A DNA stretch of 64,000 nucleotides, from the NCBI RefSeq assembly GCF_021655555.1, contig NZ_AP023086.1, positions 3,046,453-3,110,452 on the forward strand. The letters are read 5' to 3'. The position numbers were made by a program, and so were the translations under genes. Shown here in pieces: positions 30,210-64,000 of the stretch. Each line of letters opens with the position of its first letter. Positions within the stretch are counted from its first letter, which is position 1. Under the pieces are notes generated by a model. The model searched no databases, was not told where the DNA came from, and worked only from the letters and a program-made list of their open reading frames with translations. This DNA is from Marinagarivorans cellulosilyticus. Lineage in GTDB: Bacteria; Pseudomonadota; Gammaproteobacteria; Pseudomonadales; Cellvibrionaceae.

Positions 30210-30250
30210 AGCCCTTGTAATAAAGGGCGTGTACAAGGAGTCTCGTTATT

Positions 30251-30931
30251 ATGTTTGCCATCTTATTTAGCGAAGGCATGACGCCCTTTTATCAAAATGT
30301 CAGTAGCTTTCCGACTGTCTTTTTTAGTTTTTTTCTTATCGTATCTTGTCTTTTTTGGGCGATATCAATCATGGGAATGATTGATATCGAAATCCTCGAT
30401 CTGCCCGAAGCAGAAACCGGCGGCGAAGAGGGTATGGTAAACGGTGTTTCCACCGTGCTGCTTAAGCTGGGTTTAAATGGCGTCCCTATCACTATTATTA
30501 TTACGCTAATAGCCTTGTTCGGCTGGTTTGTTAGTTTTTATAGCGTCTATTTTTTTCAGATATCTGATTTGATGGCGCCTATCCGTTGGGTCGCTAACGT
30601 CGCTATTTTTGCTGCATCGCTTTACGTTGCCATTCTCATAACGTCTCAGGTGATTAAGCCGTTGCGCTCGTTATTTAAAAGTATGTCTAATGATATACAA
30701 AAGAAAATCCTAGGGCAGGCCGCCGTTGTGCGTACTTCGCGGGTGGACGAAAAGTTTGGCGAAGCAGAATTTAATGATGGTGGTGCAGGCCTAATTCTTA
30801 AAGTCCGATCTTTTGATGGTGCGGTGTTTAAGCGTAACGATCGTGTTATTTTGCTTGAATACGTTGCCGAGCAAAATTTTTATAAAGTTATTGCAGAATC
30901 CGAATTCTCGCTTGGCGGAGCTGCTCAGTAA
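30251..30931 (+). CDS. yqiJ: YqiJ/DUF1449-like inner-membrane protein with a C-terminal NfeD-type OB fold (flotillin partner)
   Basis: Three to four N-terminal TM helices, then a C-terminal OB-like segment GQAAVVRTSRVDEKFGEAEFNDGGAGLILKVRSFDGAVFKRNDRVILLEY. It lies immediately upstream of the flotillin gene, as in E. coli yqiJK. Confidence 0.75.
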   Translation: MFAILFSEGMTPFYQNVSSFPTVFFSFFLIVSCLFWAISIMGMIDIEILDLPEAETGGEEGMVNGVSTVLLKLGLNGVPITIIITLIALFGWFVSFYSVYFFQISDLMAPIRWVANVAIFAASLYVAILITSQVIKPLRSLFKSMSNDIQKKILGQAAVVRTSRVDEKFGEAEFNDGGAGLILKVRSFDGAVFKRNDRVILLEYVAEQNFYKVIAESEFSLGGAAQ

Positions 30932-30989
30932 TTTATTTCCAATAAATATTTAATGTGTTTTAAAGCCAATTCTACAATGGAGAACTAAT

Positions 30990-33011: not shown

Positions 33012-33024
33012 TACTTGTCATATC

Positions 33025-33054
33025 AAGGGCGGGCGCTATTTTTGCGCTTGCCCT
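33025..33054 (+). promoter_or_regulatory. Intra-operon GC-rich stem-loop (AGGGCGGGCGC-tattttt-GCGCTTGCCCT) between the flotillin and giant ATPase genes. Possible attenuator or partial terminator.
   Basis: Imperfect hairpin of about 11 bp in the 117-bp spacer. It is followed by a ctgaaaatttt region rather than a clean U-run. Confidence 0.3.
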
Positions 33055-33128
33055 CCTGTCTGAAAATTTTAGTTCGTTATATATAGCCTGAATTAGGTTT
33101 TTTTGTCTGTTAGAAAAAGGAATGCGCC

Positions 33129-49136: not shown

Positions 49137-49433
49137 ATACTGGCTGTTTAGTCTCTCTCGAGTGGGGTACACTCGGTATTTTAGTGGCGCGCGTCGCCTT
49201 AGAGTACAGGCTGCACGCTTTAGGCCTCACAATACAAAGGCTTGATAAATAGTGGTGGTACAAGCTAGTTTATCAAGTTGCTTGGCTAAACCCCACGCCC
49301 CATGTGTTGCGTGGTTAAGATATAACAATAACGTAAAGACAGATCAGTTTGTTTGTTCAAGCCGTTCAGCTAGGCTTACAACGGTGTATAAACAATTGAT
49401 TTGAACGAGATAAGAACAGCAAAGGTTTTCACT

Positions 49434-50468
49434 ATGGATATTACTGAACTGTTGGCGTTTTCTGCCAAGCAGGGTGCTTCCGACTTACACCTCTCGGCAG
49501 GCTTACCGCCAATGATTCGTGTCGATGGCGATGTGCGTCGCATTAACTTGCCGCCGATGGATCACAAATCGGTGCATGCGTTGATCTACGAGATCATGAA
49601 CGACAAGCAGCGCAAAGATTTCGAAGAGTTCCTAGAAACCGATTTCTCTTTCGAAGTGCCCGGCGTGGCGCGTTTTCGTGTCAACGCTTTTAACCACAAC
49701 CGCGGTGCCGGTGCGGTTTTCCGTACCATTCCATCGAAAGTACTGACGATGGAAGAGCTCGGTATGGGGCAGGTGTTTCGTGATATTTGCTCTGTGCCAC
49801 GGGGTCTAGTATTGGTAACAGGGCCTACTGGTTCGGGTAAGTCTACAACGCTGGCAGCGATGGTCGACTTTATCAACGAAAGTAAGTACGAACACATCCT
49901 TACCATCGAAGACCCTATCGAATTCGTTCACGAGTCGAAAAAATGCTTGGTTAACCAGCGCGAAGTACACCGCGATACTCACGGCTTTGCTGAAGCGCTT
50001 CGCTCGGCGCTGCGGGAAGATCCCGATATCATTCTTGTTGGTGAGATGCGAGACCTAGAAACCATTCGCTTGGCGCTAACAGCTGCTGAAACGGGCCACT
50101 TAGTTTTCGGCACCTTGCACACTACCTCAGCTGCTAAAACCATCGACCGTATTGTAGATGTATTCCCCGCTAACGAGAAAGCCATGGTGCGTTCGATGCT
50201 GTCGGAATCGTTACAGGCTGTAATTTCGCAAACCCTTATGAAGCGTGTTGGCGGCGGCCGTATTGCAGCACATGAAATTATGCGCGGTACGCCCGCGATC
50301 CGTAACTTGATTCGTGAAGATAAAGTTGCACAAATGTATTCATCGATTCAAACGGGCTCGGCTGTGGGCATGCAGACGATGGATCAATGCTTGGCAGACC
50401 TCGTCGAGCGTCGCATTATTAGTCGCGATATAGCGCGCGAAAAAGCGAAAATGCCAGAAAATTTCTAA
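49434..50468 (+). CDS. pilT: Type IV pilus twitching-motility ATPase PilT
   Basis: Nearly identical over its length to Pseudomonas PilT (MDITELLAFSAKQGASDLHLSAGLPPMIRVDGDVRRINLPP..., Walker A GPTGSGKST). Confidence 0.95.
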   Translation: MDITELLAFSAKQGASDLHLSAGLPPMIRVDGDVRRINLPPMDHKSVHALIYEIMNDKQRKDFEEFLETDFSFEVPGVARFRVNAFNHNRGAGAVFRTIPSKVLTMEELGMGQVFRDICSVPRGLVLVTGPTGSGKSTTLAAMVDFINESKYEHILTIEDPIEFVHESKKCLVNQREVHRDTHGFAEALRSALREDPDIILVGEMRDLETIRLALTAAETGHLVFGTLHTTSAAKTIDRIVDVFPANEKAMVRSMLSESLQAVISQTLMKRVGGGRIAAHEIMRGTPAIRNLIREDKVAQMYSSIQTGSAVGMQTMDQCLADLVERRIISRDIAREKAKMPENF

Positions 50469-50557
50469 GATTGGCCGGTGCCGGCGCTGTGCGCCGGTTT
50501 ATTGCTTAGCGCAGCCGCGCAAGCCTTGAGACGAACAACGATAGTAAGAGAGCTACG

Positions 50558-51700
50558 ATGGAAATTGATCGACTCCTCCGCTTAATGGTGGAAAAACAAG
50601 CGTCCGACTTATTTATTACTGCCGGTGTACCGCCATCAATGAAGGTAAACGGTAAAATTACCCCAGTCACAACAACGCCTTTATCGCCCGAAAAGTCGCG
50701 TGAAACGGTGCTTAGCACCATGAACGAAAAACAGCGCGAAGAGTTCGTTGATAAAAAAGAGCTAAACTTTGCCATCAGCGCCCGTGGTGTTGGCCGTTTC
50801 CGTGTGAGTGCTTTTTATCAGCGCAACCTTGCTGGTATGGTTTTGCGTCGCATTGAAACCAAAATTCCAAAGGTTGATGAATTGGGCTTGCCTGAAATCA
50901 TTAAAGACCTAGCTATGACAAAGCGCGGCCTAATTATTTTTGTGGGCGCTACCGGTACGGGTAAATCCACATCGCTCGCGGCGATGATTGGGCACCGCAA
51001 CCGCAACTCGAAAGGCCATATTATTTCCATTGAAGATCCTATTGAATTTGTTCACCAGCACCAAGGTTGCGTTATTACGCAGCGTGAGGTGGGCATTGAT
51101 ACTGAATCTTTTGATGTAGCTTTGAAAAACACATTGCGTCAAGCACCCGATGTGATTTTGATTGGTGAGGTTCGTTCGCGCGAAACAATGGAAAACGCCA
51201 TTGCCTTTGCTGAAACCGGCCACTTATGTTTGTGTACACTGCACGCTAACAACGCTAACCAAGCATTGGATCGCATTATTCACTTTTTCCCCGCCGATCG
51301 TCATACGCAACTGTGGATGGATTTGTCGCTAAACTTAAAAGCCATTGTGGCGCAGCAGTTAATTCCCACGCCCGACGGCAATGGTCGCCGCGCGTGTTTA
51401 GAAATTATGCTTAATACGCCATTAGCAGCAGATACTATCCGTAAGGGCGAAGTACACGAGCTGAAAGAGTTAATGAAAAAATCAACCGAGCTGGGCATGC
51501 AGACTTTTGACCAAGCGTTATACGATTTATATGACGCCGGTGAAATCACCTACGAGGATGCATTGGCGCACGCTGACTCTGCCAACGATTTACGCCTGCT
51601 TATTAAATTGGGCTCTGAATCGGATGCGGAGTACTTGTCGAATGCCGCCGATGAGTTGTCTATTCAGGAAGATGATACCAATCGGATGCGTAGGTTTTAA
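50558..51700 (+). CDS. pilU: Type IV pilus ATPase PilU
   Basis: PilT paralog (GATGTGKSTSLAAMIGHRN) immediately downstream of pilT with an extended C-terminus, as in PilU. Confidence 0.9.
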   Translation: MEIDRLLRLMVEKQASDLFITAGVPPSMKVNGKITPVTTTPLSPEKSRETVLSTMNEKQREEFVDKKELNFAISARGVGRFRVSAFYQRNLAGMVLRRIETKIPKVDELGLPEIIKDLAMTKRGLIIFVGATGTGKSTSLAAMIGHRNRNSKGHIISIEDPIEFVHQHQGCVITQREVGIDTESFDVALKNTLRQAPDVILIGEVRSRETMENAIAFAETGHLCLCTLHANNANQALDRIIHFFPADRHTQLWMDLSLNLKAIVAQQLIPTPDGNGRRACLEIMLNTPLAADTIRKGEVHELKELMKKSTELGMQTFDQALYDLYDAGEITYEDALAHADSANDLRLLIKLGSESDAEYLSNAADELSIQEDDTNRMRRF

Positions 51701-51720
51701 AGTTAAAATAAGGCATTACG

Positions 51721-51750
51721 AAAAAACCGGCGGCTGCCGGTTTTTTTTCG
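51721..51750. terminator. Bidirectional rho-independent terminator (aaaaaaCCGGCGGCTGCCGGtttttttt)
   Basis: Perfect GC hairpin flanked by an A-run and a T-run between convergent pilU and the GT2-PGT gene. Confidence 0.85.
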
Positions 51751-51766
51751 CCTAAATATCGGGCTG

Positions 51767-53611
51767 TTATTGTCCGCGCCCCATAATCATAACTTCAATC
51801 GTTTTAAACATAATCCATAAATCCATTCGCAGCCAAGTACTCACGTTGTGCAGTGAAAGTGCGTAGCCGTGATCGTATCCCACTTTGCTGCGCACATCTT
51901 CTATGCATGTATCGTAGCCTTGGTGAACCTGCGCTAAGCCGGTAATGCCAGGCATAACACCGTAAGTGCGTTCAGCAAAAAATGGAATTGCTTTTTCGAG
52001 CTTGCCGTAAAAATCGGGGCGTTCTGGGCGAGGGCCTACAATTGACATATCACCGCGTAGAACATTAATTAATTGTGGAATTTCATCAAGCCGAGTTTTT
52101 CGTAGGAAAAGCCCAACTCGGGTGATTCTGGCATCATTCTTTTGCGCCAAAGTAGCACCAGTGGCTTTTTCGGCATCTTGTACCATGCTGCGAAATTTAT
52201 ACATTGTAAAATATTGCGTTTGGGTGGGGGTGCACAAGCCAATGCGCACTTGGCTAAAAATAGCGGGTCCGCGCGATTCCAGTTTAATCGCTAGCACCAG
52301 TAATGGCAGTAATGGTGAGAGGATGACTAGCGCGCTGCCAGCAATGACAATATCAAAGATACGTTTGGCTTTTGCCGTCGTGCGATCAATCCCAAAGAAT
52401 GTATCGTTATCATTATTACGGGCCTTGTGGCGCAATACCGCGCGGTGTTTGCCGTGTAGTGCATCCCAAAGGTAGCGGCTGCTACCTAATAAGCTGCAGT
52501 AATGCCCGCGCACTAAATACCCCAGTGGGGACAATTTTCGGGTGTAGGGGAAATTGCATAAACTTAAAATCCCCATAATATAACCACTAACTTGGCCGGC
52601 AAAGGCTAATAAAAATAATGCGCTTAAGGGCGCAAGTAGGGCAGAGCCTAGCAGCGCAATAAGCATTAAATACGGCATAAGGACGCGAAGCGTTTTACCG
52701 GATGCAAACATAAATGCGATGTTGCGGTAGCGAGGGTGCAATAAATGATGCAAGCGAAACAGCTGTTGGGTATTGCCCGCTGCAATTCTAATACGGCGGT
52801 GGCTCTCAAGCTCACTTGTGGTTTGTTCTAACTCAAGGGCATTAATGTTGGGTTCCATAATCGCCTGAAACCCCGCAGCGACAATTTGCATTGGAATAAT
52901 GAAATCGTCATTGATGGTATCAGCTGGAAGAGGTGTGTATAGCTCCGAGCGTATGGCATAAAATGCACCGTGCGCGCCTTGTACTGCGCCCATAGCCGAT
53001 TCGGCAAGTTGCTGCTGGCACTGAAAATCCCAATAGGCTTTTTCACCTTGGGTGGCAGGTGAGAGTAATCGGTAATAGCCAGTGACTACGCCAACTTTTT
53101 TATCTGCAAAGTGCTTGGCGCAAAGGCTAAATGCATCGCAAGAAATCAAAGCAGATACATCGCTAAAAGCAATGAGGTCCGCTTTACTTTTGGTGGCGTA
53201 AGTGTTCAAACGGGCAACTTTTCCTGCGTTATCTTTATGTGCATGGATATGAAATTGCCAGCTTTCAAACAGTGGGTCGTTTAATGTTTTTTGTGCAATG
53301 GTTTCGGTGTTGTCGGTGCAACCATCTAAAACAATGTGAAACGCTATTTTGTTTTCAGGGTAATCGATGCAAGCTAAGTTATAGAGTTTTTCTTTGATGG
53401 TTTTTTCTTCGTTAAATGCAGGAATAATAACATCAATAAAAGGATAGCTTTCTAACTTAGCTTGAGACTGTACATTGTTAGGATGTATGTCTCGGCTTTT
53501 TCTTTGTGCCAAACGCTTAAGTAGCAGCGGGTAGAAGGCATGGTGATAAATTACTAAGAGAATACTCAACAGCGTTAGGAATCCGGCAAGTTGTAATAAA
53601 TAGTGAGTCAT
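51767..53611 (-). CDS. Bifunctional fusion: N-terminal family-2 glycosyltransferase plus C-terminal small monotopic phosphoglycosyltransferase (bacterial sugar transferase, WbaP/PssY C-domain type)
   Basis: GT2 N-half (VIIPAFNEEKTI, ...AFSDVSA, multiple TMs). C-half Bac_transf motifs KRIFDIVIAGSALVILSPL, YKFRSM, DEIPQLINVLRGDMSIVGPRPERP and PGITGLAQV. Confidence 0.8.
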   Translation of the reverse strand: MTHYLLQLAGFLTLLSILLVIYHHAFYPLLLKRLAQRKSRDIHPNNVQSQAKLESYPFIDVIIPAFNEEKTIKEKLYNLACIDYPENKIAFHIVLDGCTDNTETIAQKTLNDPLFESWQFHIHAHKDNAGKVARLNTYATKSKADLIAFSDVSALISCDAFSLCAKHFADKKVGVVTGYYRLLSPATQGEKAYWDFQCQQQLAESAMGAVQGAHGAFYAIRSELYTPLPADTINDDFIIPMQIVAAGFQAIMEPNINALELEQTTSELESHRRIRIAAGNTQQLFRLHHLLHPRYRNIAFMFASGKTLRVLMPYLMLIALLGSALLAPLSALFLLAFAGQVSGYIMGILSLCNFPYTRKLSPLGYLVRGHYCSLLGSSRYLWDALHGKHRAVLRHKARNNDNDTFFGIDRTTAKAKRIFDIVIAGSALVILSPLLPLLVLAIKLESRGPAIFSQVRIGLCTPTQTQYFTMYKFRSMVQDAEKATGATLAQKNDARITRVGLFLRKTRLDEIPQLINVLRGDMSIVGPRPERPDFYGKLEKAIPFFAERTYGVMPGITGLAQVHQGYDTCIEDVRSKVGYDHGYALSLHNVSTWLRMDLWIMFKTIEVMIMGRGQ

Positions 53612-53620
53612 GGTTTTTTC

Positions 53621-54688
53621 CTAAGCGCTAAGCAGTTGTTGGTAAGCATTTGTCATCGCATCGATCGAAAAATTCTGGCAGATAAAAGGGCGGGGTGATG
53701 CGTGTTTTGGGGCTCTACTTTGTTTAAGAATTGCATCGGCCAGTGCACGAGGGTTGGCAGGCTCCACGGCGATGCCCGAGGATGGGCATAGCGTTTCCGC
53801 GGCGCCACCTACATTGCTAACAATGCTCGGAATGTTACAAGCCTGCGCCTCTAAGGGCGCCAGAGGGAAGCCTTCGTTTAACGATGGAAGGCAAAAGCCA
53901 TCAAGCATGCGGTAGAAATTTTCGGTATGGTCGATGTGCCCTAAAAAGTGAATGCGGTGTTGCAAATTGAGCGATGTTGCTAGCTTTTTTAAGGCCTGTT
54001 CGCAGCTACCAGTGCCTGCCAGTGCCAGCGATATAGTATCGGGCAGATGCTGCACGGCGCGAATAAGGTGTTCGTGGCCTTTAACGGTTTCTAATCGTCC
54101 TGCGGAGCCTAAAAGGTACTGTGTGCTTTCTAGCCCCCAGTTTAGACGCAAGGTGTATTTATTGATTTCACTTTCACAGGGGTGAAATTTTTCTGTATCT
54201 ATACCGTTATAGATAATTTGACTTTTAGCGCCAGTGGATGCTTTGATGGCTTGGGCAACTTGCTTGGCGTCGGCTACCAGTGTTGGTTGCAGCAATACAT
54301 TTAGGCAGCGTTGAATGCCAGAGTGCTTTGCATTTTGCAAGTGCCAGCCATCATGTTCCGTATGTACATGCTTTCTAATGCCATTTAAGGCGGCTGCAAT
54401 ACCACCGTATATAAATGGGCCAATGTGGTGAGTGTGTATGGCGTTAACTTTATGGCTGAGCAAAATCTCTTTTAATTTTTTTATGGTGCCTATGGAAAAA
54501 CCGCTGGGCTTACCTAAGAAAAAAATACGATCCCGGAAGGGCGCTAAACGAGGCCACTGTGTTATTGCTTGTTGTGGCGCGCCCTCTAGGCTAATAATAA
54601 TACTGCCTTGTTGCTGCTCCATTAGTGTAAGCGCTAGGGCTTCAATGCCGCCGGGCTGTAGGTGCTGTACAATTTGTGCGCTGGTCAT
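53621..54688 (-). CDS. Glycosyltransferase family 4 (GT-B, 'group 1')
   Basis: E-x7-E motif region NEGFPLAPLEAQACNIPSIVSNVGG. Confidence 0.85.
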   Translation of the reverse strand: MTSAQIVQHLQPGGIEALALTLMEQQQGSIIISLEGAPQQAITQWPRLAPFRDRIFFLGKPSGFSIGTIKKLKEILLSHKVNAIHTHHIGPFIYGGIAAALNGIRKHVHTEHDGWHLQNAKHSGIQRCLNVLLQPTLVADAKQVAQAIKASTGAKSQIIYNGIDTEKFHPCESEINKYTLRLNWGLESTQYLLGSAGRLETVKGHEHLIRAVQHLPDTISLALAGTGSCEQALKKLATSLNLQHRIHFLGHIDHTENFYRMLDGFCLPSLNEGFPLAPLEAQACNIPSIVSNVGGAAETLCPSSGIAVEPANPRALADAILKQSRAPKHASPRPFICQNFSIDAMTNAYQQLLSA

Positions 54689-54864
54689 GATGGCCTCGTT
54701 TATTAAATTGCGAATCTATTTGCAAAATGCAAAAAATTGAAAATATCAATACTGCATTTGCGTAATTACTCGTGTTATTGCAATCTGTGGCCCAGCTTTG
54801 TTGCTTTTTTTCGTTATCTTAGAATTTATTTTTTGGTGATAATCAAAAATTCTATTATTTGGTT

Positions 54865-56325
54865 TTATGGCGCACTACGCATACTGGAGTGATTGAGTGG
54901 CGGTATGTTAGCTGCAATGCTTAATTGCGTAAGGGCTAGCACTTGGTCGCCACGGCGAATGGTGCTGTCGGTTGCTTCGCCAATAATGGCTAAACCAATA
55001 CCTAAGGTTAGGCCGCCAAAAATGCCGGCAATCACAAATAAAAATGCCGGAGGGTTGGTGGGTTGTGTAGGGGTATATGGCTTATCAATAATCTTGACGC
55101 GATCTTGGCTTTCAAAAGCGCTAAGTGATCCGGTGATTTTGGCCATCTCATGCCGCTTTTGTAAATCGTTATGCAGTGCGCGTTTAATATCAATATCGCG
55201 AATAAGAGTGGTTAGCTCTTGTTCTCGGCTACCCATATCTTGAAGTTTCGCTTCGAGTTGCGCTAGGCTTTTCTTTAAATGCTGGGTTTGCTCCTCTAGG
55301 TGCGCAACGTCGCCCTGGTTTTTTTGCAAAGCCTGTAGTTGTGTCATTAATAGTGTCAGCTCACCGCTGTCTGCGGCAACATAGTTGCTGGCCATGACCC
55401 AAAGATTTTTTAAATTATCGATATTATCAGTGGTTTCGAGTATTTTTTGGCGCTCGGTTTCTAGGCGCTCTAGTTGAAAAACCAGCTGCTTCACTGCGCT
55501 ATGTTCTTCTGTGTAGCGTGCGCGTTTAGCCGATAAATCACCTTTTGTTTGAATGATTTTGTCTTCAATACCGCTAATGATAGGGTTGGTTGAAGAAAGC
55601 TGTTCGGCCAAACTGCCGAGCCGTTTCTTTTCGCCGGCAAGTAGGGCACTTTTTTCGGCATAGTCGTGCTTTAGCTGTTCTAAGCGTGCAATGTGCGCTG
55701 TGCGATGCTCGGGTAATTCATTAGGGTAGCGGTTTTTAAAATGGGCCAGTTTTTGTTCTGCGATATTTAATTCGGTGAGGTTTTTTTCGATTTCAGTCGA
55801 TAAAAAGCTAGCCGAACCCGAAATAGAAGAGCGTTCGGGTGTTAGCAATTCATCAATAAAGTAACGGCTCACAATATTTAGTACTTGCTCCATATTGTGT
55901 GGCGAGCTGTCTTTATATTCTAGGCGATAGACATCTTTACTCACAATGCGCATTTTAAGTTTGCTTGACAATTGGCCGATCGCCCTGTCTTTTTCGGGGG
56001 CGGGGGTTTGCTCACTAATAAGTTGTAGCTCTAATGCAACGGCGGTTAAAATGTGTCGGCTATGGAGTAGAGTATTTAACGCGCCAATGCGCTCCTCTAG
56101 TAGCGGGGATACCGAAAAATCTTCCAAAAAGGGATTCATCTTCGCTGTTTCTTGAATGAGCATAGAAGTATGCGTGGCGTAATTTTTTGGCATTTTAAGG
56201 CCAATAATTAAACCCAAGACAGGCAAAATGAGCATAGGCAATACAATGCTGTAGCGGTAGCGCCACATAACACCTAAAAGCCATACGGTGCGCTGCCAAA
56301 TGTCCATTATAGTGCTCCCATCCAC
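54865..56325 (-). CDS. Polysaccharide chain-length determinant / GumC-Wzz family (PCP) protein
   Basis: N-terminal TM, periplasmic Wzz-like region, a long coiled coil and a C-terminal TM (FVIAGIFGGLTLGIGLAIIG). Confidence 0.75.
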   Translation of the reverse strand: MDGSTIMDIWQRTVWLLGVMWRYRYSIVLPMLILPVLGLIIGLKMPKNYATHTSMLIQETAKMNPFLEDFSVSPLLEERIGALNTLLHSRHILTAVALELQLISEQTPAPEKDRAIGQLSSKLKMRIVSKDVYRLEYKDSSPHNMEQVLNIVSRYFIDELLTPERSSISGSASFLSTEIEKNLTELNIAEQKLAHFKNRYPNELPEHRTAHIARLEQLKHDYAEKSALLAGEKKRLGSLAEQLSSTNPIISGIEDKIIQTKGDLSAKRARYTEEHSAVKQLVFQLERLETERQKILETTDNIDNLKNLWVMASNYVAADSGELTLLMTQLQALQKNQGDVAHLEEQTQHLKKSLAQLEAKLQDMGSREQELTTLIRDIDIKRALHNDLQKRHEMAKITGSLSAFESQDRVKIIDKPYTPTQPTNPPAFLFVIAGIFGGLTLGIGLAIIGEATDSTIRRGDQVLALTQLSIAANIPPLNHSSMRSAP

Positions 56326-57494
56326 AGGTCTAATTCCTGTGCTTTTACTTGCCAGCTCTGGTGTTGCACGGCGTATTGCTGGGCGTTGTTGGCTGCTTGA
56401 TGGGTATCGATGCTCGATAGGATCTGACTAAAGTGCGCGCTGTTGCTGGCAATATTAACGAAGCTTCGGTATTCCTCAACAGCAGGGAACTGCGTGCTAA
56501 TAATGGGTTTTCCTATGGCCATATATTCACGTAGCTTTAAAGGGTTGCAGTGTTGTATTTGTGCGCAATTAACAAACGGCAGTAAGGATGCTTGCCAGTG
56601 TTGGCTATAGGATGGTAGCTGCTGGTGTGCTTTAGGACCTAAAAAATAGGTGTTTTTAAGTTTTTTTAGGGCTTCTACGTTAATTTTTTCTTGGCCAATA
56701 AATACGAAATCCCAACTAGGGTTTTCTTGTGCAGTTTTTATTAATAGTGGAATATCTAACCAAGATTCTATACTGCCATAAAAGCCTGCTATAGGTTTAT
56801 TATTGCGGGGTAAGTCGGCCGCAGGTTTCGTTGTTTGCTTAAATAGCGTGATATCAACCCCGTGTGGCAGTAGCTTTATTTTACGTGCGGGCCACTTTTT
56901 TTGTAGTTCTTTTTGGCTAACAACCACTAAATTGGCCGTGTCGATCAGTTTGTTCTCGTGCTCGGTAACGGTGTTATGGTCAACCCCTGCCAGCCCAGAA
57001 AAGTCATCGCAGCAGTAATAGATGCTGGCATAATGGGGGATATACGCAAAGCTATCGACGGCGGTTGGAAGCGATGTCCATATTAATGGCTTATCAAATT
57101 TCAGTTTTTGGCACAGTGCATTAACTTGTTTTGCAATGGTCTTAGCGCACAGTGTTCGCACTACAGCGTTGCGTGGGGCTGGCCAAGTTTTAATATTGGC
57201 AACCGTTATATTGCCAGAGGTATTTTCACAATGCTTAGAATTATTCGGTTCGTCGTAGGTTTTTGCGCGCATTGCACTTGGAAATAGTTTGTTCCACGCG
57301 CGCTGCACATCGTTGCTATTTAGCTTGGGTTGGCGCAAGCCAATCGAGTTAATCCACAGTACTCGCCGGTTGTGAGCCATTGCCTTAATTAAATGCTGGG
57401 TGCTACTGGGAAGCCCATGCCAGTCTTCACCAAAAACGATTAAATCACGCAACATGACTAAGCTCCTTACTAATGTGGTTAGCGCATTTAGCAT
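56307..57494 (-). CDS. Glycosyltransferase (GT-B/GT1-like). The start may be the internal Met at about 57455.
   Basis: 395-aa ORF in the EPS locus with GT-B-like features in its C-half (GFYGSIESWLDIPLL...GPKAHQQLP...EYMAIGKPIIST). Weak assignment. Confidence 0.55.
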   Translation of the reverse strand: MLNALTTLVRSLVMLRDLIVFGEDWHGLPSSTQHLIKAMAHNRRVLWINSIGLRQPKLNSNDVQRAWNKLFPSAMRAKTYDEPNNSKHCENTSGNITVANIKTWPAPRNAVVRTLCAKTIAKQVNALCQKLKFDKPLIWTSLPTAVDSFAYIPHYASIYYCCDDFSGLAGVDHNTVTEHENKLIDTANLVVVSQKELQKKWPARKIKLLPHGVDITLFKQTTKPAADLPRNNKPIAGFYGSIESWLDIPLLIKTAQENPSWDFVFIGQEKINVEALKKLKNTYFLGPKAHQQLPSYSQHWQASLLPFVNCAQIQHCNPLKLREYMAIGKPIISTQFPAVEEYRSFVNIASNSAHFSQILSSIDTHQAANNAQQYAVQHQSWQVKAQELDLWMGAL

Positions 57495-58227
57495 TGTCGC
57501 GTGTTAAGCCAAGCTCTTGTTCGCTAAGAGGGCGTATAACTTTGGCTGGGTTGCCAGCGGCAATAACGTTGGCGGGTATATCTTTTGTAACAACACTGCC
57601 TGTACCTATTATGCTGTTTTCGCCAATGCGTACTTTGGGTAGCACGGTGCAGCCGGTGCCAAGCCAAACGTTGTCTTCAAGTACGATATCGCCTACTTGG
57701 TTTTCTAATTCAGCATCGCCATTGGCGCGAGCTACGGGGTTTATGGGGTGGCCTGGGTAGCCGGCTAAAAAGCAGCGCCCCGCGATTCTTACGTTATTAC
57801 CAATAATCACTTTTTTACCCACGGCAATAGTGGTTTGCCAGCTAATACCAACGTTGTGGCCAATTAACAGTTGTGCGCAGTCACTATTTTGGCTGCGTCC
57901 GCTAAATGTAGTTTGGCCAGAAATTCTGCAGTTTTCTCCTAATGTTATGGCTAAGCGGCCCGCTAAAAATGGCATGCCGGTGTATAAGTAAAGATGGCGC
58001 GGTGCTTTATCGACGAGTGCTTTAAAAAGAGGCGTCCACCAAAAAATGCGGATGACTTCTTTAATGCCATTACTTAACAGAAAAAAAACAGGTGCCATCA
58101 CGCGATAAGGCATAAGTGGCAGCGGTACATTGAGCGTTCGCATACCTTTAATGTAAGGGCGCAAAGTACTAGCCAGTGGATGATCGCTATTTTTCAGCCA
58201 AGCTTTTGTCGATTCTATATATAACAT
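57445..58227 (-). CDS. Hexapeptide-repeat (LbH) acetyltransferase, WcaF/colanic-acid acetyltransferase-like
   Basis: Left-handed beta-helix repeats (IGHNVGISWQTTIAVGKKVIIGNNVRIAG..., VLEDNVWLGTGCTVLPKVRIGENSIIGTGSVV). Confidence 0.8.
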   Translation of the reverse strand: MLYIESTKAWLKNSDHPLASTLRPYIKGMRTLNVPLPLMPYRVMAPVFFLLSNGIKEVIRIFWWTPLFKALVDKAPRHLYLYTGMPFLAGRLAITLGENCRISGQTTFSGRSQNSDCAQLLIGHNVGISWQTTIAVGKKVIIGNNVRIAGRCFLAGYPGHPINPVARANGDAELENQVGDIVLEDNVWLGTGCTVLPKVRIGENSIIGTGSVVTKDIPANVIAAGNPAKVIRPLSEQELGLTRDNAKCANHISKELSHVA

Positions 58228-58669
58228 AGGAGTGAACTTGTTTTATTGATGATATGTGCGTCCTAGCTAGAATCGCGCCAAAAGTATTTCAATATTTCTA
58301 TCAGGTTTAAGGATTTTGTGCGCTGATTTAACGGTTATATACCGTAAATTCACCCTGCTGGCTTCTATGATTTTATCTTTTTCGCATTTTGCAATTAATG
58401 TTTTTACATTTGTTTTGCAGAATGAGAATTATATTTTCATTCTAGGAAGCGCCAAGGCTGAAACTCCCTAATTGATGGATTTGGAACTGTAAAATTAAAT
58501 TTAAGGAGTGGTTCGCTTTTTGCTGTTGTCAAAATGTTAGCTAGCTATGACATGCCGTTACGAGTCGGCGCCATGCCATTAGGCATAAGAGGCGCAATTA
58601 TTGAATCTTGTATGCATAAATACAGCTGGAAAAGTCAATATGTACTATTACTTATAAAGGTAATTAATA

Positions 58670-60022
58670 ATGGTGGCAGCACGCTTGAAAAACGACGAGG
58701 ACGACAATAACCATAGCATGGCCACGCCGGCTTCAGAGCCGACAGTCTTGTTTGTGGATGACGAAGCCCCCGTATTAAAGGCCATGACGCGGTTTTCGCG
58801 TGGCCGAGGCTGGAATGTCTTAACTGCACTCAGTGGGCAAGAGGGGCTAGCATTACTGGCAGATCAACAAGTGGATGTGGTGGTATCCGACATGCGGATG
58901 CCCGGCATGACCGGTGACATCTTCCTTGCCAAAATTAAACAGCAATACCCCGATGTTATTCGGATTTTATTAACCGGCCACGCGGATGTTAAAGCGTTGG
59001 AAAACGCCATTAACCATGCGGGTATTTATAACTATATTAATAAACCCTGGGACGATCACTTGCTAGGCGAGGTCATTCAAGGTGCTTTACGTTTTCAAGA
59101 GTCAGAGCGCGAGCGTAAACGTTTAGAAGATTTAACGAGAAAGCAAAACCGTCAGTTAGGGCGTTTAGCTTTAAGTTTAGATAAAACTGTCAAAGAACGG
59201 ACAATTGAAATTGAGCAAGCTTTAACATTATTGCAAATGACGCACGAGCGTTCTAAAAAAAGCTTTCACGATGCGTTGAGTGTGGTAACCCAGTTATTAG
59301 ATTGGAACGAAGGCCGGGCGAATAATCATTGTCGTTTTGTCGCCGAGTTAGCGCAAAAAACAGCTACAGCCATGAAACTGAGCGAAGACGATGTCGAGCT
59401 AACGCAAACGGCAGGCTTATTACACGATATAGGTTTGATGGCGTTGCCCGAAAACTTACGTAAAAAACCCGTTTACGATATGACTGACGAAGAAGTCGCA
59501 GATTATCAGCAGCATCCAATTCTTGCAGAAATGGCGCTATCGGCGGCCAGTGGCTTAGAGGCCGTAGCTAAGGTGGTTAAGCAACACCACGAGCATGTAG
59601 ATGGCAAGGGCTTTCCCGATGGTTTACGTGGCACAGCGGTATCAATGCCTGCACGTATAATTGCGGTTGTTGCCGATTACCACGATCTCTACCACGGCTT
59701 GTTGGCGCGGCAATGTCTTGGGCACGAAGACGCCAAGGCTCACCTGCAGAAAAAGGCCGGCACAACTTACGATATTGCTGTAGTTAATGCCTTTTTGTCG
59801 TTATTGGGTGATCAAAACAGAGAGCACATTCACCGTTTTAAAGCGACCGTTGCCCAACTAAAAGAAGGCATGCTGCTGGATCAAGATTTACATGCCTCCA
59901 ATAAGCTTTTATTGCTAACAGAGGGTACCGTAATTACGCGTAATATTATTGATCGCTTAGTCAGTTATCAGCGCAAGTTTGATTGCAAATTTGAACTGAT
60001 GGTAAAAGGTGATATCGGTTAG
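58670..60022 (+). CDS. Response regulator with REC plus an HD-GYP phosphodiesterase domain (GYP replaced by GFP)
   Basis: REC motifs VLFVDDE...VVVSDMRMPGMTG...LLTGH. HD-GYP motifs LLHDIGLMALPE and HHEHVDGKGFPDGL. Confidence 0.85.
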   Translation: MVAARLKNDEDDNNHSMATPASEPTVLFVDDEAPVLKAMTRFSRGRGWNVLTALSGQEGLALLADQQVDVVVSDMRMPGMTGDIFLAKIKQQYPDVIRILLTGHADVKALENAINHAGIYNYINKPWDDHLLGEVIQGALRFQESERERKRLEDLTRKQNRQLGRLALSLDKTVKERTIEIEQALTLLQMTHERSKKSFHDALSVVTQLLDWNEGRANNHCRFVAELAQKTATAMKLSEDDVELTQTAGLLHDIGLMALPENLRKKPVYDMTDEEVADYQQHPILAEMALSAASGLEAVAKVVKQHHEHVDGKGFPDGLRGTAVSMPARIIAVVADYHDLYHGLLARQCLGHEDAKAHLQKKAGTTYDIAVVNAFLSLLGDQNREHIHRFKATVAQLKEGMLLDQDLHASNKLLLLTEGTVITRNIIDRLVSYQRKFDCKFELMVKGDIG

Positions 60023-60056
60023 TTTACGCCCTTGATTACAGTATGGAGGTTAAAAA

Positions 60057-60599
60057 ATGAAAGGTGCTGTATTTATTGCTTTAAATGATTTTGTAGAAAC
60101 GCTCTACGGTATTGATCGTTGGGAGGCAATATTAGCTGAGGTGAACCCTGAGTCTGGCGGTGTTTATACCTCTGTGCAAAATTATGATGATGCCGAAATG
60201 GTAGCTCTAGTGCATGCCATTTGTAAGCAATTGGGTGTCACCCGCGCCCAAGCTTTAGGTATTTTTGGCGAGTACCTTTTTGGTGTTCTAAACACTAAAT
60301 ACCCAATATTTACCAGTTTGCAACCCGACTTTTTTAAGTTTTTGGCGTGTGTCGAAAGTATAGTGCATACCGAGGTACGTAAGCTATTTAGTGATGTGAA
60401 GCTGCCTTTGATTGTGCCCGTTGAAACAGGCGAGCACAAAATAGTATTACGCTATGAATCAGATCGCCAAATGTGCGAACTTGCCGAGGGCCTAATCCAC
60501 GGTGCGGCTAAATTCTATGATGTGACTATTAAAATGCGTCAAGGGTGTTGTTACCATCAAGGGGATGACCATTGCCTTATTGAGGTTATGCTAGTGTGA
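60057..60599 (+). CDS. hnoX: H-NOX (heme nitric oxide/oxygen-binding) sensor protein
   Basis: H-NOX fold markers: N-terminus MKGAVFIALNDFVETLYGIDRWEAIL, the proximal His in SIVHTEVRKLF and the Y-x-S-x-R heme-propionate motif LRYESDRQMC. At 180 aa it sits directly upstream of a soluble histidine kinase with 4-nt overlap. Confidence 0.85.
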   Translation: MKGAVFIALNDFVETLYGIDRWEAILAEVNPESGGVYTSVQNYDDAEMVALVHAICKQLGVTRAQALGIFGEYLFGVLNTKYPIFTSLQPDFFKFLACVESIVHTEVRKLFSDVKLPLIVPVETGEHKIVLRYESDRQMCELAEGLIHGAAKFYDVTIKMRQGCCYHQGDDHCLIEVMLV

Positions 60600-61561
60600 G
60601 TGACGTAAATTATAAGGCTGCTTACGAACGCCAAAAGAAGGCCAGGGCATTAGCGGAAGAGCTGTTAGAAAACCGTTCGCGTGAACTTTACGAGGCCAAT
60701 CAATCGCTGCAATATGCGTATAACAAGCTAAAAAACCAAAAAGCACAGATCCTTCATCAAGAAAAGTTGGCGTCTATCGGTCAATTGTCTGCTGGTGTTG
60801 CGCACGAAATTAATAACCCTGCAGGCTATGTAAAAAGTAATCTTAATACGCTTAAAGGGTATAGTCAGGATCTTGTTAATTTTTACAGTGCCGTAAACGA
60901 ACTCTTTTCTAGTTACTGTGCTAGCTTGCCTGGTGGTATATGCTCGGCAGAGAGTCAGAAACTTATTGCGCAGTTTGAAGAATTAAAAGGCGTGCATGAT
61001 ATTAAGTTCTTACTAGCCGATATCGCTGATATTGTTGATGAAAGCCATGATGGTATCAAACGTATAGAGGGTATTGTTAGGGGGTTAAAAGATTTTTCTC
61101 GCCCAGACGAACCCGAACCGCAAACTGTGAATTTGGTATCTTGCCTAGAAAACACCATTAAGCTGGTTTCTAATCAGGTAAAACACAAACTTAATATTAC
61201 ATTTGAGCACGAAGGGCAGTTGTTTATTAAAGGGCAGCAGGGCAGCTTGTCGCAGGTTTTTTTAAATTTAATTGTGAATGCGTCGCACGCAGTTGCGGAC
61301 GATGGCCATCTAAAAATTAAAGCAAATTCTGCAGAGGGCTTTGCAATGTTGCATTTTATCGATGACGGATGTGGCATGGATACGCAAACTCAACTTAAAG
61401 TGTTCGAACCGTTTTTTACCACGAAAGCGCAAGGCGTAGGGACAGGTTTGGGGTTGTCGATATCCCACGGTATTATCAAAAAGCATGGCGGTCTAATTAG
61501 TGTGAGTAGCGAGTTAGGGCAGGGTACGGAATTTATTATTCAGCTACCTCTTGATGTATAA
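60596..61561 (+). CDS. hnoK: H-NOX-associated cytoplasmic histidine kinase (HnoK-like)
   Basis: No TM segments. H-box GVAHEINNPAGYV and HATPase_c motifs (NLIVNASHA, DDGCGM, GTGLGLSISHGII). Confidence 0.85.
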   Translation: MSDVNYKAAYERQKKARALAEELLENRSRELYEANQSLQYAYNKLKNQKAQILHQEKLASIGQLSAGVAHEINNPAGYVKSNLNTLKGYSQDLVNFYSAVNELFSSYCASLPGGICSAESQKLIAQFEELKGVHDIKFLLADIADIVDESHDGIKRIEGIVRGLKDFSRPDEPEPQTVNLVSCLENTIKLVSNQVKHKLNITFEHEGQLFIKGQQGSLSQVFLNLIVNASHAVADDGHLKIKANSAEGFAMLHFIDDGCGMDTQTQLKVFEPFFTTKAQGVGTGLGLSISHGIIKKHGGLISVSSELGQGTEFIIQLPLDV

Positions 61562-61577
61562 CCCTCTTATTACCCCA

Positions 61578-62951
61578 TTATTTTAAGTTTTCGCGCTGCC
61601 AGAACTTCATGGCAATAATTAAGCTTGCTACAACGTAAATGGGCCAAGTGAAGCCTTGCGTTAGGAATGTGCCAGAAACCACTATGCCTAATATCGCCGC
61701 CAAGTTGGCTTCGGAGGCCGCTTGAATTGCCGCAGGAGCCTTGCACTGAATGCCATCGTCTGTTGTTTTAATGGCATCCCTTATCAGTTGAACAACCATA
61801 ATCACAAAAACAATAATGCCAAGAATACCGGTTTCGGCCAGTACGCCAAACCATGTGCTGTGTACCGCATGGTTTAAGCCGTCCCAGTGGGGGCTGTAAA
61901 AGTAATAATTAGAGAAAAAGTTCTTGAGCCCCACACCGCTAAAAGGGTTGGCCAGTGCCATGCCCCAAGCAGCCTGCCAAGCCCAAATGCGCCCCATCGC
62001 CGAGGCATCTACACCGCTTTCGGCGGCGCCGCCAGAAGCGCGGCCCGATATACCGGCCATGACAAATAATGCCATTGCTACAACGGCGCCGGCACCAAAA
62101 AAGATGAACTTATTGGTTATACGGCGGTAGGCAAACAAGCCAAACACAGCCATTACACCCAGTAGGCCGCCACGGCTTTGGGTTGCAATAACGGCGCTGA
62201 ACAAGGCTATGGTTGAAATGGCGCCAACAAGGCGCGCAATAAGCCCTAAGCCTTTGTTTAGCATAAGGCTTATGGCAAAACTAATGGGGAACATGAGTAC
62301 TAAGGCAAGATCGTTAGGGTCGCCCAGAATAGAGCCTAACTCGCGCCCCACAGTAACCCGCGTTCCTTCTACTAGGCCAATGCCATTAACCTTATTCCAC
62401 AAGGCAACGCCGGCAACAGCCGCGCCAGAAAGCGTTAACAAATACAAGCTTAATAAAAAGTCCTTGGGGGTTCGGGTGAGCCAAGCAATGGCAAAAGTCA
62501 TAATAATGATTTTTATATAGGAATCTTTAAAGGCGGTAATGGCAATATCGCGGCTGGTCGCGAAAAAAAGCCCCGTAAAAACAAGAAAAAAGAAGAGCCC
62601 AACCCAATTGAAGGTGTCGTCCCAAAAGGGCCTTATCTTACCGGTTACAACAATATGCCAGCCCAAAGCAAATAAAGCAGAAAGCGCCAATAGTTGCGGG
62701 ATTCTTAACGGGTTTAAAAAAGGGAAGGCTTCGTGAATGCGGCAAAACGAAAAAATCACAAAACTAAGAATAATAATAAACGGGAGCTTAAGTACGCCGT
62801 ATATGGCCAGTGGTGCTAAGCAGGCAGCAATAATGACTATTGGGTGGGGCAGTAGCCACCAAGCAGCCGCAAACAACCCGCATAAAGCGATAGCAATAAG
62901 CGGGGTAACGATTGCGCGGCGGTTGGGCGCTAAGCCGTGTGTTTTTAGCAT
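61578..62951 (-). CDS. O-antigen ligase / Wzy-like polysaccharide polymerase family membrane protein
   Basis: At least ten TM segments with the Wzy_C signature region ATQSRGGLLGVMAVFG and a periplasmic loop. Confidence 0.8.
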   Translation of the reverse strand: MLKTHGLAPNRRAIVTPLIAIALCGLFAAAWWLLPHPIVIIAACLAPLAIYGVLKLPFIIILSFVIFSFCRIHEAFPFLNPLRIPQLLALSALFALGWHIVVTGKIRPFWDDTFNWVGLFFFLVFTGLFFATSRDIAITAFKDSYIKIIIMTFAIAWLTRTPKDFLLSLYLLTLSGAAVAGVALWNKVNGIGLVEGTRVTVGRELGSILGDPNDLALVLMFPISFAISLMLNKGLGLIARLVGAISTIALFSAVIATQSRGGLLGVMAVFGLFAYRRITNKFIFFGAGAVVAMALFVMAGISGRASGGAAESGVDASAMGRIWAWQAAWGMALANPFSGVGLKNFFSNYYFYSPHWDGLNHAVHSTWFGVLAETGILGIIVFVIMVVQLIRDAIKTTDDGIQCKAPAAIQAASEANLAAILGIVVSGTFLTQGFTWPIYVVASLIIAMKFWQRENLK

Positions 62952-62989
62952 GCGCGAAAGCGGTGCCCCGTATTGTGGCGGCTACAACG

Positions 62990-64000
62990 TTAACAAGGTG
63001 CTGTAGTCGCCTGACGAAAACCCAAGTAATTAGTTAAACGATAGCTGATTACCATAGCACCTGCACAAATCGCACAGCCTAAAGCTAAAGCAACTGAGTA
63101 GATGGTGAGCTGCCAAATGCCTACTTGGGAGCTTAATGCGGTATAACTGATACCTGTAGCAACAACGGGCATGCAAACGCAAAAGAGCAGTAGTAATGGC
63201 TGTACGTGGTGAACTAAGGCGTTTTTACCTTGTAGGTGAATTGCCGCAAGGCGAAAACCTTGGGCGATAATAAGGCCTGTAATACAGCCGCTTACCCCCC
63301 AATAAAAGGTGCCCAATAAACAACAACTTGCACCAATAATGGCACTGGTAACATTAATTTTTAATAAAGGTAGCGTGCTTTGTTGGCTAAGCAGGCCAAT
63401 ATTGTGAATCTCGCTGGCTTCGCGCAGGCCAAACATAATGGCTATAGCACCGGCTAATAGTGTTGCCGAGTGATAAGCTTCTGGCATCAGTACAATAATA
63501 AGTACGGGTGCCATACAAATAACGCCGCAAGTCATTAAGCTTAACAGTACGCTGGCTAGCCCCAATACTTGCGTGCATTGCGCTGCGCGGTGTTGTAGCC
63601 ATTCAAAGCGGCGTGGGCGCCACCACATGCCAAAAGGTTGCATTAGCAGCACCGTCGCTAGCGCAAATTTAGCGGCTACACTATACAGCCCTAATTGCGT
63701 TAAAGAATCCCATTGGGCTATAGCAATGCGATCGACACCATTGAGCGCAAACATACATAAACCACTGCCAAGTAGTGGCATACCGTAGCGCCATATGGCG
63801 GTTAGCTCTTGGCGTTTTGCCGCAATGCCTGTGCTTCGGTATTGGCATAGCCCAAGCACAAAGGCTTGGCTAAATGTTGCAATCACACTGGCAATAATCA
63901 CGCTATCTAAGTGGGGGTTGTGGTGCAGCAATACAACGGTTAACAACGCTTGTAAAAATGTACGGCCAATTACTACGGCAAAAAACTGGCCGGCATTATC
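62990..64000 (-). CDS. Wzx-type polysaccharide flippase (MOP superfamily). It is 5'-partial; the gene continues beyond the window end.
   Basis: The multi-TM C-terminal half is typical of 'polysaccharide biosynthesis protein' flippases. The frame is still open at 63947-64000. Confidence 0.7.
   Translation of the reverse strand, partial: DNAGQFFAVVIGRTFLQALLTVVLLHHNPHLDSVIIASVIATFSQAFVLGLCQYRSTGIAAKRQELTAIWRYGMPLLGSGLCMFALNGVDRIAIAQWDSLTQLGLYSVAAKFALATVLLMQPFGMWWRPRRFEWLQHRAAQCTQVLGLASVLLSLMTCGVICMAPVLIIVLMPEAYHSATLLAGAIAIMFGLREASEIHNIGLLSQQSTLPLLKINVTSAIIGASCCLLGTFYWGVSGCITGLIIAQGFRLAAIHLQGKNALVHHVQPLLLLFCVCMPVVATGISYTALSSQVGIWQLTIYSVALALGCAICAGAMVISYRLTNYLGFRQATTAPC

Follow-up and report, generated by a model that had tools for sequence, protein, structure and literature searches.

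Why should a gene set that resembles a nitric oxide (NO) sensing system sit, in reverse orientation, in the middle of a polysaccharide biosynthesis locus, and does that polysaccharide answer to it? The question is raised by a 64,000-nucleotide stretch of the Marinagarivorans cellulosilyticus genome (contig NZ_AP023086.1, positions 3,046,453 to 3,110,452; hereafter the window, whose own numbering we use throughout), in which three adjoining open reading frames (ORFs) encode a response regulator (RR), an H-NOX protein and a histidine kinase. On balance we favour the view that this trio is an NO-responsive two-component operon with a phosphodiesterase (PDE) output acting on cyclic di-GMP (c-di-GMP) or pGpG, and that it became lodged, and has been kept, in a syp-type locus whose polysaccharide it tunes. 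All of the parts belong to known families, and an H-NOX protein combined with a kinase and an HD-GYP regulator is already on record. What is new is the wiring: sensor and kinase are built into a syp-type locus, together with an RR of the c-di-GMP-hydrolase type, in another bacterial order. Our literature searches found no paper that notes an H-NOX trio in a syp or scv locus, and the survey of scv loci (PMC8941931) makes no mention of H-NOX.

The H-NOX operon and its setting

The trio spans 58670-61561 of the plus strand as co-directional ORFs in the order RR, hnoX, kinase:

58670 to 60022, plus strand: RR gene, 450 aa; REC and HD-GYP (GFP variant) domains, extended by about 70 aa at the C-terminus
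60057 to 60599, plus strand: hnoX, 180 aa; predicted H-NOX haem NO sensor
60596 to 61561, plus strand: kinase gene, 321 aa; soluble, H-NOX-associated histidine kinase of the HnoK/HahK/NosK type

Every neighbour of the trio is a polysaccharide gene on the minus strand, with the Wzy_C and Wzx genes on one side and the set at 51767-58227 on the other. An earlier note on this DNA, made from the sequence alone, had described a REC-HD-GYP regulator with a GFP variant motif, an H-NOX protein and its kinase on the plus strand, embedded among minus-strand polysaccharide genes. Domain searches and alignments bear out its protein content, strands, ORFs and embedding, and a longer copy of the locus (L001) has five polysaccharide genes on either side. 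The note was also right that hnoX and the kinase gene overlap by 4 nucleotides: the hnoX TGA (60597-60599) and the kinase GTG (60596-60598) together read GTGA. The two genes overlap likewise in the homologous loci L002, L004 and L010, and a GGAGG ribosome-binding site lies 8 nucleotides upstream of hnoX. Gene-level matches for the trio and the locus have E values from 1e-22 to 1e-135, which rules out chance.

The loci that we compared include L002 and L012 (one species, 97.9% identical), L010, L013 from Marinagarivorans algicola, L016 from Alteromonas sediminis and L017 from Saccharophagus degradans 2-40. L001 itself is a 53-kb contig (ENA ERZ922552, k127_80270) from an assembly labelled 'viral metagenome'; by tblastn it encodes the RR, the H-NOX protein and most of the polysaccharide proteins identically to the window. 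It resembles an ordinary bacterial chromosome, and is probably cellular DNA carried into the virome. The cluster in L001 is about 16 kb long and lies between pilT/pilU at one end and a MAPEG gene with RNase R at the other.

A polysaccharide locus of syp/scv type

Read along the minus strand, the locus encodes three GT4 glycosyltransferases (GTs), Wzx, a Wzy_C protein, then, beyond the reversed trio, a hexapeptide acetyltransferase, a GT, a polysaccharide co-polymerase (PCP) with a GNVR domain, a further GT4 and a fusion of GT2 with Bac_transf:

Beyond the window, after the Wzx gene, minus strand: sypH-, sypI- and sypJ-like genes, the three GT4, as read in L001
62990 to 64000 and past the window end, minus strand: SypK/ScvI-like Wzx flippase (Polysacc_synt), 484 aa at full length in L001
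61578 to 62951, minus strand: SypL/ScvJ-like Wzy_C membrane protein (Wzy_C, 69.7 bits)
57445 to 58227, minus strand: SypM-like hexapeptide acetyltransferase (Hexapep), which opens the left sub-operon; identity about 60% in L002, L010 and L012
56307 to 57455, minus strand: SypN/ScvK-like glycosyltransferase (GT1, TuaH-like); 44.8% identical in A. sediminis L016
54865 to 56307, minus strand: SypO/ScvL-like PCP (GNVR) with no kinase domain; TIGR03007 at 215 bits, below its cut-off of 279
53621 to 54688, minus strand: SypP/ScvM-like GT4 (Glycos_transf_1 and Glyco_transf_4); the 176-bp gap before it is the sypO-sypP boundary
51767 to 53611, minus strand: SypQ-SypR (ScvN-ScvO) fusion, 614 aa; Bac_transf 195 bits, Glycos_transf_2, TIGR03937 PgaC_IcaA 66 bits

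By gene order and domain content, the locus is of the type called syp in Vibrio fischeri (sypH-I-J-K-L-M-N-O-P-Q-R) and scv in Vibrio parahaemolyticus. This assignment compares order and domains, and relies in part on the annotations of the Syp proteins. The correspondence of scv with syp genes follows PMC8941931, in which 148 species are scv-positive; M. algicola and A. sediminis are among them, and both have ScvN and ScvO fused. The 614-aa window protein, which joins a PgaC/NodC-like GT2 with transmembrane segments to a Bac_transf priming phosphoglycosyltransferase (PGT), matches the description of that fusion; the same type of fusion is present in L002, L010 and L016, in the last at 47.7% identity. 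M. algicola L013 is collinear with the window at 41.8-80.7% identity (81% for the Wzy-like protein) and A. sediminis L016 at 34-56%, the latter with a Poly_export gene. Genes of the sypA-G type are absent next to the locus, within 10 kb of it and elsewhere in the window. An XrtA/PEP-CTERM identity was considered and rejected: four NCBIfam models of that system match, all below their cut-offs.

For a 'polymerase/ligase', the SypL-like Wzy_C protein shows unusual conservation. Among Marinagarivorans lineages it is the best-conserved product of the locus (80-82% in L002, L010, L012 and L013), and identities of 55-59% extend over several gammaproteobacterial orders (Alteromonas, Saccharobesus, Catenovulum, Psychromonas, Photobacterium and Oceanobacter).

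The nature of the locus bears directly on the question of the target. Because the locus is of syp/scv type, because HnoX and HahK control syp in V. fischeri (PMC12369376; PMC8738867), and because SYP-dependent biofilm in that species needs c-di-GMP and is lost when a PDE is overproduced (PMC8546588), a link between NO and this polysaccharide becomes, by analogy, more plausible.

The embedding is derived and has been retained

The earlier note had called the trio 'inserted', and the word proves apt. In A. sediminis the orthologous core (Wzx, Wzy, GT, GT, PCP, GT4, GT2-PGT) is uninterrupted and co-directional, and, judged by this outgroup, the embedding is the derived state. In V. fischeri sypL and sypM belong to adjacent operons (PMC4263508), so the junction occupied by the trio is an operon boundary. 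L002/L012 and L010, two further species-level lineages, have the trio embedded in the same way; DNA identity among these and the window is about 69-72%. Relative to the window, the RR is 73-74% identical in these lineages, H-NOX 68-70%, the kinase 59-61% and the polysaccharide proteins 42-82%, a pattern in keeping with co-inheritance that speaks against recent transfer. The outer flanks vary from lineage to lineage, with pilT/pilU and MAPEG in L001 and GDPD and DJ-1 in L002. Recent horizontal insertion was weighed as an origin and rejected, as the GC content of the trio is not distinguishable from that of its flanks and divergence between lineages is as great for the trio as for the polysaccharide genes.

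A second association comes from S. degradans 2-40 (L017:1-21320), where the three genes recur in unchanged order directly beside another polysaccharide cluster. They presumably make up the Sde_3803/3804 system of earlier studies. Its RR, H-NOX and kinase are 38%, 44% and 47.5% identical to those of the window, and its neighbours (a convergent GT2, Wzx, a sigma-54 RR, WecG, a PGT and Poly_export) include no clear orthologue of a window gene. For a background we scanned metagenomes with the RR alignment, which gave only distant relatives (at most 45% identity) and hence a background set rather than further examples. Polysaccharide-type genes were found near none of these 80 distant RR-family loci, about 31 of which exceed 10 kb, while a related kinase was nearby in 54 and an H-NOX gene in 2. 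Because two associations with non-orthologous polysaccharide clusters stand against none in this background, the comparison argues for function over accident.

A gene for a DUF4842 protein, followed by a small ORF (150-200 aa), lies beside the sypH-L block or the trio in three lineages (L014:15699-17622, L015:11527-13510 and L017:7652-9974).

Sensor, kinase and response regulator

The H-NOX protein matches Pfam HNOB (PF07700) at 137.2 bits, with a cut-off of 25.5, and its best solved relative is the Shewanella oneidensis H-NOX (4u99, E = 4e-27). The haem-pocket alignment that the earlier note had proposed as a check places His104 on the proximal His103 of the S. oneidensis protein and Y133-E-S135-D-R137 on its YSSPR. 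In an alignment with the Thermoanaerobacter (Tt) H-NOX, whose aligned range agrees with the PDB match, His104 corresponds to His102 and YESDR to YVSKR, and the positions of Tyr140 and Trp9 are occupied by Leu and Leu9. Since the position of the O2-stabilising Tyr140 is Leu, the apolar distal pocket, devoid of a hydrogen-bond donor of that type, fits an NO-selective H-NOX. The C-terminus (residues ~134-177: C140, CC163-164, H166, H171, C172) gives a V4R Pfam match and aligns with the Cys/His-rich region of the S. oneidensis protein. It may form a zinc or redox site, such as has reportedly been described for Shewanella and Vibrio H-NOX proteins.

The kinase has a HATPase_c domain (79 bits) and a HisKA H-box, 'GVAHEINNP' (AHEINNP), in the segment GVAHEINNPAGYV. 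It has neither a sensor domain nor a transmembrane segment, and its N-terminal 60 aa contain no Pfam domain or hydrophobic segment. The HEINN(P) H-box recurs in the S. degradans kinase and is cited for NosK too; HEINN would fit the H-E/D-x-x-T/N phosphatase motif discussed for NosK.

The RR, which is 100% identical to a protein of M. cellulosilyticus (family Cellvibrionaceae), combines the Pfam domains Response_reg and HD_5/HD. It matches NCBIfam NF053512, the NosR family of response-regulator c-di-GMP phosphodiesterases, at 450.9 bits (cut-off 400) over model positions 1-422 of 422; operons of that family are recognised by a NosP (FIST) sensor, and the sensor at the window locus is an H-NOX protein instead. 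The REC residues D30, D31, D74, T102 and K125 are kept, as are the HD-type metal ligands H220, H252, D253, H282, H306, H307 and D336 when the protein is aligned to 4r8z, 4mcw and 5z7c. All of these are invariant in the 14 closest RR homologues except D336, which is Asp in 10 and Glu in 4. Even at E = 10, nothing in Pfam matches the C-terminal 71 residues, and a resemblance to DUF3391 that we had suspected by eye was accordingly dropped.

A proposed route from NO to polysaccharide

In an ancestor of the Marinagarivorans clade, the operon would have lodged in reverse orientation at the sypL-sypM boundary, to be retained since. NO would bind the ferrous haem of H-NOX, ligated by the proximal His104, with Y133, S135 and R137 holding the propionates and an apolar pocket on the distal side. 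H-NOX, made 1:1 and coupled with the sensor-less kinase, would then shift the kinase/phosphatase balance of that kinase, which in turn would set the phosphorylation of Asp74 in the RR. The phosphorylated REC domain would unmask the bimetallic HD-GYP site, as in PA4781, and c-di-GMP or pGpG would be hydrolysed. Should NO-bound H-NOX inhibit the kinase, as it does in Shewanella and V. cholerae, the PDE would be off, c-di-GMP would go up and the Syp-like polysaccharide would be favoured. Because E. coli PgaCD is activated by c-di-GMP, the PgaC-like GT2 of the SypQ-SypR fusion is a candidate c-di-GMP receptor.

A further c-di-GMP enzyme, a PAS-GGDEF-EAL protein of 771 aa, is encoded about 5 kb from the polysaccharide locus (44172-46487, minus strand), adjoining pilT/pilU (49401-51700).

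Several observations weigh against this proposal. Its weakest step is the polarity, since it runs counter to V. fischeri, where NO inhibits syp biofilm. Domain and Rfam searches of the locus found no PilZ, MshEN or GGDEF I-site protein and no c-di-GMP riboswitch. The RR lacks the GYP tyrosine, which hydrogen-bonds the substrate phosphate, and the equivalent of Glu185, the third-metal ligand of PmGH (Arg216 in the RR); by analogy with PA4781 it could be slow or prefer pGpG. Trios with RRs 63-67% identical to that of the window occur in unrelated contexts (alaS/moeA, AsmA and TetR neighbourhoods), and linkage is therefore not required for function. The divergent region between the RR and sypM-like genes, aligned with those of L002 and L010, has 55% column identity and no convincing conserved operator. 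Finally, a scan of genome contigs with the Wzy-like protein gave only two loci, one of them from M. algicola; its contig stops 64 bp past sypL, and that species does not count as a further case of the embedding.

Alternative explanations

It is possible, though we think it unlikely, that the kinase acts mainly by the V. fischeri route, through a SypF/SypG-type sigma-54 phosphorelay encoded elsewhere, so that NO lowers transcription of the syp-like genes and the HD-GYP regulator is secondary or parallel. HahK works through SypF and SypG in V. fischeri, and candidate sigma-54 sites are present in the window:

54779 to 54794, minus strand: sigma-54-like -24/-12 match TGGGCCACAGATTGCA, 90 nucleotides upstream of the sypP-like gene
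58509 to 58524, plus strand: weak sigma-54-like -24/-12 match TGGTTCGCTTTTTGCT, score 8/11, 145 nucleotides upstream of the RR start; a lead only
58265 to 58280, minus strand: weak sigma-54-like match TGGCGCGATTCTAGCT, score 8/11, 37 nucleotides upstream of the sypM-like start

Across three loci, matches upstream of the sypH homologue score 9 each (in L001, before 19302), those upstream of the sypP homologue score 9, 8 and 8, and those before sypM are weaker. A score of 9 or more is reached by only 5 matches in the whole 21-kb L001, both strands included; for the weak matches the background is 24 in 42.7 kb of L001, again on both strands. Upstream of the RR gene in L002 and L010 there are sigma-54-like matches of similar score, whose positions are not aligned. 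The matches appear consistent with SypG-type control, though no sypG lies nearby in M. cellulosilyticus. L014, whose Wzy-like protein is 76% identical to that of the window, carries a gene of SypE architecture (HATPase_c_2-REC-SpoIIE) and one for a SypG-like sigma-54 regulator upstream of its sypH-L block, and SypE-like and SypG-like genes adjoin that block in L015 as well. Two points count the other way. The window locus has no homologue of sypE, sypF or sypG in the range stated above, and the RR is the co-operonic partner of the kinase, a position in which the nosRPK kinase phosphorylates its RR rapidly.

The location might instead be accidental, the trio being a global c-di-GMP regulator that settled at a permissive operon boundary and was neutrally retained, with no special relation to the polysaccharide. 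We find this doubtful. Close homologues do work from unrelated loci, as set out above, c-di-GMP is diffusible and the locus yielded no receptor. In L009 an RR relative (52%) and the kinase remain while the H-NOX gene is missing. Moreover, L014 and L015 lack the sypM-R half, and what comes after their sypH-L block is an MscS channel gene or a methyl-accepting chemotaxis protein gene; the junction after sypL is thus, as far as these loci indicate, a recurrent break-point. Nevertheless, the arrangement has survived divergence of the neighbours to 42-60% identity and a change of the outer flanks, the S. degradans trio has an independent association with another polysaccharide cluster where 80 other family loci have none, and a link from NO and H-NOX to syp is documented in V. 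fischeri.

A gene for an HnoC-like RR (HTH_17/MerR and REC) adjoins the trio in L007 (4379-4951) and L009 (9598-10218).

Rather unlikely, in our view, is the reading, along the lines suggested by the earlier note, that the RR is a non-catalytic regulator of the HnoD/NosR kind, which would bind other c-di-GMP enzymes. The note had taken a Tyr-to-Phe change in the GYP motif as a possible sign of an HnoD-like, not fully catalytic protein, a reading that does not hold. The motif (residues 306-319, HHEHVDGKGFPDGL) has Phe315 at the tyrosine position, and Phe is the majority state of the family alignment (Phe in 72 and Tyr in 42 of 120 sequences, and Phe in 14 of 14 of the closest relatives). The same GFP occurs in PA4781, which is an active PDE on c-di-GMP and pGpG whose activity requires REC phosphorylation (PMC3774798). 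Loss of the tyrosine hydroxyl may lower affinity or shift preference towards pGpG. As to the missing glutamate, PA4781 and VCA0681 have no Glu185 equivalent either, and both still produce GMP. The idea gains from the score of the RR as a NosR-family member, as the Burkholderia type member is degenerate (HG-GTP), and from degeneracy among more distant relatives, including S. degradans, whose HD-GYP domain reads AALHNIGY and THKERLNGTGFP (HN; HKE..NG.GFP). True degeneracy in this family thus takes a different form from the Phe substitution. The loss of catalytic HD and metal-ligand residues that marks HnoD is, on our alignments, not a feature of the window RR: HD, HH and the other ligands are retained, in its 14 closest homologues too, apart from the Asp/Glu variation at D336.

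A more speculative extension, which we consider quite unlikely, is that the NO/H-NOX-Syp link is ancient and in Marinagarivorans became hard-wired, with the trio replacing a SypE/F/G arm. The HD-GYP regulator would then act locally on the Syp machinery, for example on c-di-GMP or pGpG at the PgaC-like GT2 of the SypQ-SypR fusion, and not via the global pool.

There remain the intergenic regions:

58228 to 58669, no strand: AT-rich intergenic region of 442 bp that separates the divergent sypM-like (minus) and RR (plus) genes; presumed shared control region
58419 to 58443, no strand: palindrome 11-3-11, AGAATGAGAAT-TAT-ATTTTCATTCT, inverted repeat I2, 91% complementary; possible operator
61562 to 61577, no strand: gap between the convergent stops of the kinase gene and the sypL-like gene, 16 bp

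Coupling in cis, whether by antisense transcription or collision from convergent, unterminated transcription of the trio and sypH-L or by co-regulation of the trio and sypM-R from the divergent region, is improbable: the close convergent stops (57 bp apart in L002, 26 bp in L010), in the window without a predicted terminator, and the palindrome over a predicted -10 box make a purely geometric basis, the intergenic sequence is not conserved and the terminator scan is a crude consensus.

Other features of the window

The palindrome at 58419-58443 overlaps the -10 box predicted for the minus strand, within a promoter-like site at 58455-58428. Sigma-70-like matches in the divergent region number 6, not above the shuffle mean of 7.4; GC content is 0.376 at 58000-58499. 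At the convergent junction, the crude consensus scan and folding revealed no intrinsic terminator or unusually stable fold (z-scores 0.01 and 0.24), and an Rfam scan of 51000-64000 at E <= 1 found no riboswitch or other RNA family.

Elsewhere, at 29520-38624 on the plus strand, four co-directional genes encode PspA/IM30, two proteins without a Pfam match (226 and 673 aa) and a 1831-aa protein with DUF3686 ('ATPase involved in DNA repair'), DUF7902 and AAA matches. This run is possibly a stress or defence module.

Significance and comparison with known systems

The downstream target of most bacterial H-NOX/kinase pathways is unknown. The phenotype of the S. degradans H-NOX/kinase knockout is listed as unknown, and the entry for Pseudoalteromonas atlantica names c-di-GMP pools alone, with the effect on them unknown (PMC8738867). 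In M. cellulosilyticus gene position alone puts forward a candidate target, a biofilm polysaccharide of the syp/scv type. This family is important to vibrios in colonising their hosts and occurs in 28 aquatic genera. If our proposal is true, NO control of Syp polysaccharide would not be peculiar to the squid symbiont. It would also offer a compact, genetically tractable unit for studying how an H-NOX signal is turned into c-di-GMP turnover, whether HD-GYP domains of the GFP type have activity, and how c-di-GMP acts on a Wzx/Wzy-type pathway with no known receptor.

The closest functional precedent is the V. fischeri HnoX-HahK/syp system. As in the window, H-NOX is co-operonic with a histidine kinase, and the syp locus has the same sypH-sypR order and domains. 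It differs in that hnoX-hahK lies away from syp and signals via SypF to the sigma-54 regulator SypG, whereas in M. cellulosilyticus sensor and kinase lie inside the locus with a REC-HD-GYP regulator and no adjacent sypA-G.

In S. degradans, a member of the same bacterial family as Marinagarivorans, Sde_3804/3803 presumably belong to the same trio in the same order. The H-NOX/kinase pairs of S. degradans and of P. atlantica (Patl_1532-1534) act on c-di-GMP via a response regulator (PMC8738867). The S. degradans regulator is degenerate, unlike the Marinagarivorans RR with its predicted catalytic residues kept, and its polysaccharide neighbours are non-orthologous. That of P. atlantica is said to be an HD-GYP protein named HarR.

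The Burkholderia nosR-nosP-nosK operon has the same order of regulator, sensor and kinase and a HEINN H-box, with NosP (FIST) where the window has H-NOX. Its NosR is of the degenerate HG-GTP form, and its kinase phosphorylates the RR in vitro. For the output domain, the nearest likeness is PA4781 of Pseudomonas aeruginosa (4r8z), which also joins REC to an HD-GYP domain with GFP, where it reads HHERWDGRGFPEGL, and also has no third-metal Glu. Unlike the window RR, PA4781 has no linked H-NOX, and it carries the non-consensus Glu314 favouring pGpG, a position that by our own residue mapping is Leu340 in the RR.

The HnoX-HnoK-HnoB/C/D systems of Shewanella oneidensis and V. cholerae provide the sensor most similar to that of the window, the S. 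oneidensis H-NOX. In those systems NO-bound H-NOX inhibits HnoK, PDE activity falls and c-di-GMP rises. Their catalytic output is the EAL protein HnoB, with the HD-GYP protein HnoD as a degenerate inhibitor, whereas the only RR linked to the window trio is an HD-GYP protein whose metal ligands are intact.

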